From sequence record MT932213.1: a stretch of DNA of 64,000 nt, one strand, 5' to 3'. Shown here piece by piece: positions 1-3,362 of this stretch (the first letter of the stretch is position 1; every line of letters starts with the position of its first letter). Below the pieces are notes generated by a model. That model saw only the letters and a program-made list of their open reading frames with translations, was not told the origin of the DNA and searched no databases. The DNA is from Escherichia phage VEc74. The position numbers and the translations under genes are program-made.

Positions 1-218
1 CTGCCCAGTACTTACAGGGAATTAAAGCTCTCGGTGGAATTTATGAATATCGTGTAGTTTGCGATACAACAAATAATACTCCGTCAGTAATTGATAGAAA
101 TGAGTTTGTTGCAACATTCTACATCCAACCGGCTCGTAGTATAAATTATATCCAACTTAATTTCGTCGCAACTGCTACTGGTGCAGATTTTGATGAGTTA
201 ACTGGTCTTGCAGGTTAA
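1..218 (+). CDS. 18: Tail sheath protein gp18, C-terminal fragment (5' end outside window)
   Basis: In-frame translation ends ...YIQPARSINYIQLNFVATATGADFDELTGLAG then TAA at 216-218; matches remembered T4 gp18 C-terminus and synteny upstream of gene 19. Confidence 0.8.
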   Translation, partial: AQYLQGIKALGGIYEYRVVCDTTNNTPSVIDRNEFVATFYIQPARSINYIQLNFVATATGADFDELTGLAG

Positions 219-863
219 TTGATTATGGGGCTTCGGCCCCTATTCTCGAGGAATCAAGTGATTATTTCTAAGTTTGTTACAATAAAACCAAGAAATCATT
301 CAAAAATGTGGTCGACAATTCTGGGATATAAAGTATTATATCATGATACAGTATCTGTTCCAATAGAATTAATGCCAAAGAATAGTAATAAAATAGTTGA
401 CGCTAAATGTGATTTATGTGGTATTAAATTTAGTAGAAGCATTCAGCTTTTAAATAGAACACCCACGCATGCATGTAGAAAATGTAGCATTAAACAAGTT
501 GCTATTAAAAATTCGGAAGTTCAATCTGGAATAAGTAGACCATGGCAAAGAGGTGATAAACATCCTCGATGGACTGGTAAAAGAAAAGAGTTTGCATTAT
601 ATGCTAGTAGAGTTCATTCTATAACTAAGTCAGCTAAAATAAGAAAAATCTGGTCAAAATGGCCGAATGCTGATAAAATAGGAGTGTGTGGCGTAGAAGG
701 TGCTTACCAACTCGATCATAAAGTATCTATCAAATATGGATTTGATAATTTAATTCCGCCGGAAATTATAGCAAGCGTAAAAAATTTAGAAATAATCACT
801 TGGGAATCTAACCGAGAAAAGTCAAAAAGAAATAGCGTAGATCTTTGGGATTTACTAGAATGA
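219..863 (+). CDS. Putative free-standing HNH-type (His-Me finger) endonuclease with N-terminal Cys4 zinc-ribbon-like motif; candidate homing endonuclease
   Basis: ORF track 214 aa; CDLCG...CRKC cysteine pairs; C-terminal QLDHKVSIKYGFDN...KNLEIITWESNREK resembles HNH D-H...N...N; track start at 219 is TTG, first ATG at 225 (SD AGGT 212-215), alternative ATG at 306. Confidence 0.5.
   Translation: MIMGLRPLFSRNQVIISKFVTIKPRNHSKMWSTILGYKVLYHDTVSVPIELMPKNSNKIVDAKCDLCGIKFSRSIQLLNRTPTHACRKCSIKQVAIKNSEVQSGISRPWQRGDKHPRWTGKRKEFALYASRVHSITKSAKIRKIWSKWPNADKIGVCGVEGAYQLDHKVSIKYGFDNLIPPEIIASVKNLEIITWESNREKSKRNSVDLWDLLE
227..240 (+). terminator. GGGGC-UUCG-GCCCC tetraloop hairpin just after gene 18 stop; overlaps the 5' end of the HNH ORF
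   Basis: Perfect 5-bp stem with UUCG loop. Confidence 0.5.
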
Positions 864-870
864 TTCTAAA

Positions 871-888
871 GGCCTGTTTCGGCAGGCC
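871..888 (+). terminator. Hairpin GGCCTG-UUUCGG-CAGGCC downstream of HNH ORF
   Basis: Perfect inverted repeat 8 nt after the stop. Confidence 0.45.
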
Positions 889-889
889 A

Positions 890-897
890 TATAAATA
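890..897 (+). promoter_or_regulatory. T4 late promoter motif TATAAATA
   Basis: Exact consensus; 80 nt upstream of gene 19. Confidence 0.5.
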
Positions 898-948: not shown

Positions 949-956
949 TATAAATA
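949..956 (+). promoter_or_regulatory. T4 late promoter motif TATAAATA (gene 19)
   Basis: Exact consensus ~15 nt upstream of gene 19 ATG. Confidence 0.6.
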
Positions 957-970
957 CTACAGAGGCTAAT

Positions 971-1462
971 ATGTTTGTAGATGATGTAACACGAGCGTTT
1001 GAATCTGGTGATTTTGCTCGACCTAACTTATTCCAAGTAGAAATTTCTTATCTTGGACAAAATTTTACGTTTCAATGTAAAGCCACTGCTTTACCAGCTG
1101 GTATTGTAGAAAAAATTCCAGTCGGATTTATGAACCGTAAAATTAACGTAGCAGGCGATCGTACATTCGATGACTGGACTGTTACAGTAATGAACGATGA
1201 AGCTCATGATGCTCGCCAGAAGTTTGTTGATTGGCAAAGCATTGCTGCGGGGCAAGGAAACGAAATTACTGGTGGAAAACCTGCAGAGTATAAAAAGAGC
1301 GCTATCGTCCGTCAATATGCTCGTGACGCTAAAACAGTAACAAAAGAAATTGAAATTAAAGGTCTGTGGCCTACTAACGTGGGTGAACTTCAATTAGATT
1401 GGGATTCAAACAATGAAATCCAAACATTTGAAGTAACTCTTGCTCTCGATTATTGGGAATAA
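971..1462 (+). CDS. 19: Tail tube protein gp19
   Basis: 163 aa, sequence matches remembered T4 gp19 (MFVDDVTRAFESGDFARPNLFQVEISY...); late promoter motif just upstream. Confidence 0.95.
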   Translation: MFVDDVTRAFESGDFARPNLFQVEISYLGQNFTFQCKATALPAGIVEKIPVGFMNRKINVAGDRTFDDWTVTVMNDEAHDARQKFVDWQSIAAGQGNEITGGKPAEYKKSAIVRQYARDAKTVTKEIEIKGLWPTNVGELQLDWDSNNEIQTFEVTLALDYWE

Positions 1463-1494: not shown

Positions 1495-3119
<1,625 letters not shown>

Positions 3120-3120
<1 letters not shown>

Positions 3121-3362
3121 TGGAAGGTTTAATTGAAGCTATTAAATCAAACGACCTCGTAGCCGCTCGTAAATTATTTGCTGAAGCCATGGCTGCAAGA
3201 ACGATTGATTTAATTAAAGAAGAAAAAATCGCTATCGCTCGTAATTTCTTAATCGAAGGTGAAGAACCTGAAGACGAGGATGAAGATGATGATGACGAAG
3301 ATAGCGATGATAAAGACGACAAAAAAGACAAAGACTCTGACGAAGACGAGGATGATGAATAA
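3120..3362 (+). CDS. 67: Prohead core protein gp67
   Basis: 80 aa with acidic Asp/Glu-rich C-terminus, matches T4 gp67 size and position. Confidence 0.9.

Follow-up and report, generated by a model that had tools for sequence, protein, structure and literature searches.

An insert separates the tail sheath and tail tube genes of phage VEc74

We analysed a 64,000-nucleotide stretch of the genome of Escherichia phage VEc74 (sequence record MT932213.1, hereafter 'the window') and focused on an open reading frame (ORF) that lies between gene 18, which encodes the tail sheath protein, and gene 19, which encodes the tail tube protein. Over its first 1500 bases, the window shares 98-99% identity with T6, PP01, PST and other Tequatrovirus genomes. 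As an earlier, sequence-only reading of this DNA had stated, the 18-19 spacer of T4 is short (116 bp, NC_000866 100516-100631). In VEc74 it measures 752 bp, which corresponds to a net gain of 636 bp. The insert responsible for this gain (Table 1) stands in place of 8 bp that follow the gene 18 stop codon (TACGGTGC in T4; TA(C/T)GGTGC as the consensus of empty junctions), and from ATTCTAAAGG onward the window is identical to T4 in the alignment with T4 and RB6. The empty form of the junction, TAA-TA(C/T)GGTGC-ATTCTAAAGG, was found in T4, T2, G8, SHFML-11, IME537, OMNI12 and five IMG/VR contigs. In the filled junctions of the window phage, Ptacy1496, T6, RB6 and sb3, the insert sits at exactly one shared point. 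In addition, the gene 18 flank sequence of the window was also found in phages with an empty site. These junctions support the view that the ORF between genes 18 and 19 is inserted as compared with T4 and that the site is empty in most relatives.

We then compared the junction across a phage collection in which 653 records match the T4 flanks, about 500 of them at an identity of at least 90% (the Tequatrovirus-level set). About a quarter of these ~500 junctions are filled (~118), either with the allele of the window (type A, 69 records) or with that of RB6, RB3 and sb3 (type B, ~49 records), and ~380 are empty. The comparison of T-even junctions that the sequence-only reading had proposed thus yielded a presence/absence polymorphism at one precise site among close relatives, as is characteristic of free-standing homing endonuclease genes. 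All listed type A copies align over residues 1-201 and hence appear intact.

Table 1. Features at the gene 18/19 junction of phage VEc74, with positions in the window
Feature	Position	Strand	Remarks
Gene 18 (tail sheath), 3' end, left flank of the insert	1..218	+	Stop codon TAA 216-218; translation matches the gp18 C-terminus of T4 and RB6
Insert, 644 bp	219..862	+	Alignment with T4 and RB6; 11 empty and 5 filled junctions compared
Hairpin 1, GGGGC-UUCG-GCCCC, part of the insert, close behind the gene 18 stop codon	227..240	+	Predicted fold
Shine-Dalgarno-like GAGGA	248..252	+	5 nucleotides (nt) before GTG 258; read from the sequence
Coding sequence, T6 ORF19.1 homolog, 201 amino acids (aa)	258..863	+	GTG start, TGA 861-863; AlphaFold2 model with mean predicted local distance difference test (pLDDT) 89.4
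N-terminal domain, about residues 1-90	258..527	+	Beta strands and a four-cysteine zinc ribbon or treble clef (C51, C54, C73, C76); modelled with confidence by AlphaFold2
Allele-divergent block, type A versus type B	279..633	+	30-60% nt identity by binned comparison; two-piece blastn matches
Putative catalytic module, C-terminal, about residues 109-190	582..827	+	Helices, strand (YQLDH), strand (NLEII), helix (WESNREK); putative site D153-H154, N176, N185
Hairpin 2, GGCCUGU-UUCG-GCAGGCC, native to the 18-19 spacer, outside the insert	871..888	+	Identical in T4 and RB6; fold z-score -3.0
Two native late-promoter motifs, TATAAATA, upstream of gene 19, downstream of the insert	890..897, 949..956	+	Identical in the empty T4 site
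Gene 19 (tail tube), right-hand neighbour	971..1462	+	ATG 971; product 100% identical to T4 gp19

Start codon and expression signals

The sequence-only reading had described a 214-aa ORF filling the junction. An ORF at 219..863 does exist: read mechanically from a TTG codon, it encodes 214 aa, directly follows the gene 18 stop codon and ends before gene 19. However, translation most likely begins at GTG 258 and yields a protein of 201 aa, since this codon is preceded by the GAGGA motif and the PHROG 5104 profile alignment begins at exactly that residue. Two further arguments for this start are that homologs open with MII(S/T)K at this point, often from an ATG, and that the 13 codons upstream of GTG 258 hold a hairpin. 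Many GenBank records begin the ORF at an ATG inside this hairpin. All residue numbers given here count from the GTG.

Two UUCG-tetraloop hairpins and two TATAAATA motifs had been thought to bracket the insert, as if a terminator/promoter unit had been duplicated or brought in by it. All of these elements exist and the upstream hairpin does come from the insert, but both promoter motifs lie 3' of the ORF and, together with hairpin 2, are native to the empty site: they are found with identical sequence in empty T4 and RB6-type junctions. Among the junctions compared, hairpin 1 occurs in every filled site and in no empty one; it is the only such element that the insert contributes, which carries no promoter. 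Scanning IMG/VR for the native hairpin and promoter returned five loci, all of them empty sites.

Hairpin 1 was not called by a terminator scan and has no U-run after its stem; it is therefore likelier to act as an RNA 3'-end or stability hairpin than as an efficient terminator. In the absence of a promoter within the insert, transcripts that start at the gene 18 promoters probably run across this hairpin and supply the gene late in infection. The GTG start and the modest Shine-Dalgarno sequence suggest low expression. A hairpin that might cover both of them (248-268) is weak and no better than in shuffled sequence (z -1.16).

A putative HNH-type nuclease module behind a presumed zinc-binding domain

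Two CxxC pairs, noticed in the sequence-only reading, were recovered as C51/C54 and C73/C76 (nt 408-419 and 474-485), and their cysteines are invariant or nearly so in homologs. The zinc-ribbon or treble-clef domain that they define is presumably the DNA-recognition module. It gave weak C2H2 and treble-clef matches. Compared with Pfam DUF4379, a probable treble-clef zinc finger, it scored 15.7 bits (E=0.018), below the gathering cut-off of 24.5 bits. DUF4379 was matched at E<=1 by 16 of the 42 homologs in our full-length alignment, and one relative (locus L075, 27.1 bits) passed the cut-off; we treat the resemblance as a lead only.

The C-terminal D-H...N...N segment, likewise read from the letters beforehand, corresponds to D153-H154, N176 and N185 (codons at 714-719, 783-785 and 810-812). 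These residues are invariant in all 42 homologs, as are L177, R186 and K188 among other columns. In a broader alignment of 39 catalytic modules, which extends down to ~30% identity, they are joined only by Y115 and Y150 as invariant residues. The spacing of the segment (D153-H154, 21 residues, N176-L177, 7 residues, N185, 2 residues, K) is that of the HNH motif; that is, the protein displays the D/H-H...N...N/H residue pattern with the spacing typical of the HNH superfamily. An AlphaFold2 model built on the homolog alignment predicted strands at YQLDH (150-154) and NLEII (177-181) and a helix at WESNREK (182-190), and thereby the beta-beta-alpha element of the HNH or His-Me finger fold (pLDDT 89). 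Among viral models, Foldseek found neighbours named HNH endonuclease or homing endonuclease (E down to 7e-5), and it found nothing significant in the PDB. Residue pattern, predicted secondary structure and nearest structural neighbours thus support the assignment of the C-terminal half to the HNH/His-Me finger nucleases. Neither of the two outcomes that the sequence-only reading had named as fatal to its proposal was observed.

The segment covering residues 169-185 (762-812, IPPEIIASVKNLEIITWESN) is close to the leucine-rich-repeat (LRR) consensus, and the family profile produces false matches to LRR proteins in the PDB at E=2.9e-6. We consider these spurious because 'IPPEIIGxIxNLQIIPWxxN' mimics the LRR consensus.

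Over its full length the protein matches PHROG 5104 (3.9e-82), a family of unknown function; this match and the thousands of relatives found by profile search (see below) exceed what chance would produce and mark the ORF as real. It is thus a full-length member of a group that carries no functional label, and the nuclease assignment goes beyond the PHROG annotation. The protein is best described as a putative member of an uncharacterised D-H-N-N branch of the HNH superfamily with a cysteine-free catalytic module and an N-terminal zinc ribbon.

Two alleles with different zinc-finger halves

Comparison of the window with RB6 and sb3 revealed that type A and type B inserts share 80-100% of their DNA sequence over 219-278 and 634-863, whereas the block between these segments is unrelated (30-60% identity). 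This block codes for the zinc-finger half and the linker. Since the ends and the catalytic half are shared, one presumed recognition half has been swapped for another at this site while the catalytic frame stayed in place. The gp19 proteins of the window phage (type A) and RB6 (type B) are 100% identical, and their insert proteins are 53% identical; the nearest copy of type A was found in Karamvirus (62%) and that of type B in Jiaodavirus (64%). The identity matrices of the insert protein and gp19 therefore conflict, as expected for the lateral spread of a homing endonuclease gene. In addition, the insert is present on several gene 18 flank haplotypes, with T4-like flanks in sb3 and T2-like flanks in RB6.

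A cluster of synonymous differences in gene 18 (139-150, encoding S-I-N-Y) was considered as a cleavage or immunity site, or as a late promoter supplied by the insert. It reads AGT ATA AAT TAT in the window and AGC ATT AAC TAC in T4 and generates TATAAATT. We rejected this candidate because the empty T2, G8, SHFML-11, IME537 and OMNI12 junctions have the codons of the window, and the filled sb3 junction has those of T4.

Relatives of the gene in other phages

A profile of the homologs detected 6405 cluster representatives (50% identity) at E<=1e-3 among 1.84 billion proteins, and we examined 80 viral-contig loci, 33 of which had near full-length matches. Cultured phages with the gene at the 18/19 junction include Karamvirus, Dhakavirus, Jiaodavirus and Winklervirus members, Acinetobacter phage Melin and Vibrio phage VmeM-32; in Sinorhizobium phage phiM12 it directly follows gp18. 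In the Vibrio phage locus (vB_VmeM-32, L103, 2277-3288), the protein match at 3001-3288 extends beyond the annotated end of the coding sequence at 3101, and this copy may be frameshifted or decaying.

Every relative tested matches PHROG 5104 through the catalytic module, and one (L066) also matches the PHROG for endonuclease VII weakly (1.8e-4). Other phage proteins join the catalytic module to NUMOD3 (2.3e-8, which exceeds the Pfam cut-off), helix-turn-helix, DUF4379 treble-clef or DUF7487 modules, and these fusions are a further argument for a nuclease. Relatives that share the catalytic module and carry other N-terminal modules were located between the clamp-loader genes gp44 and gp62, between gp47 and gp46, and downstream of the major head gene gp23, a gp41-like helicase gene and a baseplate wedge gene. 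Free-standing homing endonucleases of T4-like phages are typically encoded by small genes that sit between conserved ones and have DNA-binding modules that can be exchanged (PMC2988022, PMC2993671), and our observations support the conclusion that the relatives behave like such genes. The catalytic module may define a very large His-Me finger family that is unnamed in curated profile libraries.

Four IMG/VR contigs (L073, L075, L079 and L085) contain ORFs of 540-580 aa in which the catalytic module is followed by a long C-terminal domain. The PHROG families matched by this domain are 559 and 3339 (HNH / homing endonuclease), and it is weakly Mom-like and GNAT-like; in L075, a second gene with the same domain adjoins. 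In two Karamvirus and Dhakavirus genomes, those of Enterobacter phage KMB17 (L005, 3748-4329) and phage IME540 (L006, 3267-3848), an additional ORF of 193 aa lies between gp19 and gp20. Its matches to SegE GIY-YIG (E=0.0046) and NUMOD3 (E=0.011) are below threshold and suggest that another free-standing endonuclease gene probably occupies the next gap but one gene along.

Comparison with known systems and existing annotation

The gene is identical in kind and site to T6 ORF19.1, from which it differs in nothing material: the proteins are 97.5-99% identical and the depositors called the same GTG start. T6 ORF19.1 has been in the databases since 1994, and its record assigns no function. Elsewhere the same ORF is labelled as hypothetical protein, 'HNH endonuclease' (PQ863253), 'homing endonuclease', 'putative head morphogenesis protein', 'holin' or 'type II restriction endonuclease'; the variously annotated GenBank records include AP018814 / NC_054907 (T6), MW883059, OP168898 and PQ657792. 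That is, 'HNH endonuclease' or 'homing endonuclease' already stands on the copies in a few recent records.

MobE of T4 and the other Mob proteins are free-standing HNH homing endonucleases of T-even phages (PMC2790892; reviewed in PMC2988022), and the sequence-only reading had likened the insert to mob genes. The likeness is one of lifestyle: both are small, intron-free genes between conserved genes, patchily distributed among close relatives, with a His-Me finger motif. The expected mechanism is also alike, with a cut or nick in the gene-free genome and repair from the gene-bearing one. However, membership of the Mob family was rejected, as no sequence relationship was found between the catalytic-module alignment and T4 MobE, the only Mob protein compared (hhalign probability 0.06%, E 0.73), and the PHROG matches of the protein include no Mob family. 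In MobE, the HNH motif lies near the N-terminus (residues 21-44) and is recognized by Pfam HNH (21.5 bits versus a cut-off of 21.4), whereas the module of the window protein is C-terminal, has no flanking cysteines and is missed by Pfam.

HNH nicking endonucleases of the I-HmuI type resemble the window protein in combining a catalytic module with separate DNA-binding modules, and NUMOD3 occurs in relatives of the window protein. One structural neighbour in BFVD carries a name derived from I-HmuI structure annotation. I-HmuI uses a zinc-free site of the H-N-N type. In contrast to this group, the domain order is reversed here, with the presumed DNA-binding domain at the N-terminus; that domain is a zinc ribbon and no NUMOD, and no match was found at the sequence level. 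F-CphI and the DHHRN (Endo VII-motif) enzymes (PMC6083498) are phage homing endonucleases whose His-Me type catalytic domain, like that of the window protein, is C-terminal and escapes standard HNH models. The hallmark of their family is a central DHDH between CX2-4C and CX2C, together with a conserved Arg and Asn (PMC6083498). Membership of this family was rejected as well, since the window family has DHK(V/I)S in place of DHDH and no cysteine pairs flank the motif.

Discussion

In our view, the gene 18/19 spacer is likely to harbour a free-standing homing endonuclease gene that belongs to the HNH (His-Me finger) superfamily. The insert with its exact borders and its empty alleles, the nuclease-type residues and fold, and a family whose behaviour is modular, site-hopping and phylogenetically incongruent form the basis of this reading, and from them we infer catalytic activity, a target site, the timing of expression and homing. 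When related phages infect the same cell, the putative enzyme would nick or cut the 18-19 junction of the one that lacks the insert. Since the flanks of filled and empty junctions are identical up to the insertion point, the simplest target would be the intact empty junction, which the insert itself splits. Recombinational repair would then copy the gene, along with some flanking gene 18 or gene 19 sequence, into the cut genome.

Several observations weigh against a homing endonuclease gene. The Pfam HNH, HNH_3 and NUMOD profiles, which the sequence-only reading had proposed as a check, do not match the protein, nor do the curated HNH profiles PF01844, PF13391, PF13392, PF13395 and PF14279; HNH_4 was matched by 1 of the 42 homologs only (E=0.078). 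Searches of PDB sequences with the full-length and the catalytic-module profiles gave no HNH match, and the matches that did appear were limited to zinc-finger, mitoribosomal mS66 and LRR proteins. Among ~16 junctions, a small sample from phages that recombine frequently, no flank variant tracks the insert, that is, no co-conversion haplotype was seen. We found no functional study of the gene in the literature. In addition, 30 of the 33 near full-length homologs occupy the 18/19 gap: 27 have a recognisable gp18 on one side and gp19 on the other, two further ones fit this arrangement within the limits of their contigs and one is on the opposite strand. Some contigs with the gene in this gap come from phages in which gp18 shares only 33-47% identity with the coliphage protein, and such constancy of location could mean long vertical residence with a benefit to the phage. 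The homolog on the opposite strand (L032, 3231-3695) is located between gp18 and gp19 and reads against both of them.

A wider reading, which we regard as possible but rather unlikely, is that nuclease genes of a single lineage have stayed with the sheath/tube junction throughout the whole T4 superfamily, with a fixed catalytic half and a zinc-finger half that is swapped as a cassette or, alternatively, with a role gained there that benefits the phage, such as competitor exclusion. Members of this putative junction-tied lineage were detected in coliphages, in Sinorhizobium, Acinetobacter and Vibrio phages and in the environmental contigs that encode divergent gp18 proteins. If this reading is true, cassette swapping would amount to a natural re-targeting of one nuclease scaffold.

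A long-resident nuclease that benefits the phage and no longer propagates itself, or never did, is an unlikely explanation. Such an enzyme might exclude co-infecting relatives or attack other DNA late in infection, and its gene would owe its persistence at the 18/19 junction largely to vertical descent, with loss from time to time. The single location across Tequatrovirus, Karamvirus, Dhakavirus, Jiaodavirus, Winklervirus, Twarogvirinae, Emmerichvirinae, Emdodecavirus and distant environmental T4-like contigs is what this scenario predicts, and invariant putative catalytic residues in intact copies agree with it. However, about three quarters of Tequatrovirus junctions, those of T4 and T2 included, do without the gene, which is therefore dispensable. 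Moreover, the copies are related to one another in a way that disagrees with gp19, and one site hosts two unrelated central blocks, a pair of findings that points to lateral replacement rather than vertical descent, and none of the defence-system models in PADLOC matched the protein.

The missing HNH profile matches and the weak zinc-finger similarities could also indicate a catalytically dead relic or a DNA- or RNA-binding zinc-finger protein whose HNH-like motif is structural only. The location in a late structural operon, between two genes whose products are needed in a fixed ratio, would suit a regulator of the gene 18/19 expression balance. We nevertheless regard this as quite improbable, since D-H, N and N are strictly conserved over thousands of relatives, including those in quite different gene contexts, a pattern expected of a working active site, and since most close relatives lack the protein yet make normal tails. 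An HNH helper of the terminase, as in HK97-like cos phages, was considered because the gene lies two genes after terminase gene 17, and can practically be dismissed: T4 and most relatives have no such gene, module relatives also adjoin replication and recombination genes, and T4-type phages package by headful with the nuclease of gp17 itself.

For a homing endonuclease gene at the 18/19 junction, both the gene (T6 ORF19.1, 1994) and the kind of element are already known. What is new is the picture at the level of the family, namely a large unnamed family, a conserved site and cassette-swapped alleles. PHROG 5104, with its thousands of clusters, would be a large nuclease family that annotation in the style of Pfam or NCBIfam has left 'hypothetical' or that has been mislabelled as holin or head morphogenesis protein. 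For genome annotation, our analysis corrects the probable start codon and supplies a putative functional label. The two alleles, with one catalytic half and different presumed recognition halves at one site, offer a natural experiment on the retention versus the change of a target. If the enzyme is active, it would add an uncharacterised homing endonuclease, located in a late tail operon, to the classic T-even system. It could then bias the inheritance of tail sheath and tail tube alleles in mixed infections and may contribute to the partial exclusion among T-even phages.
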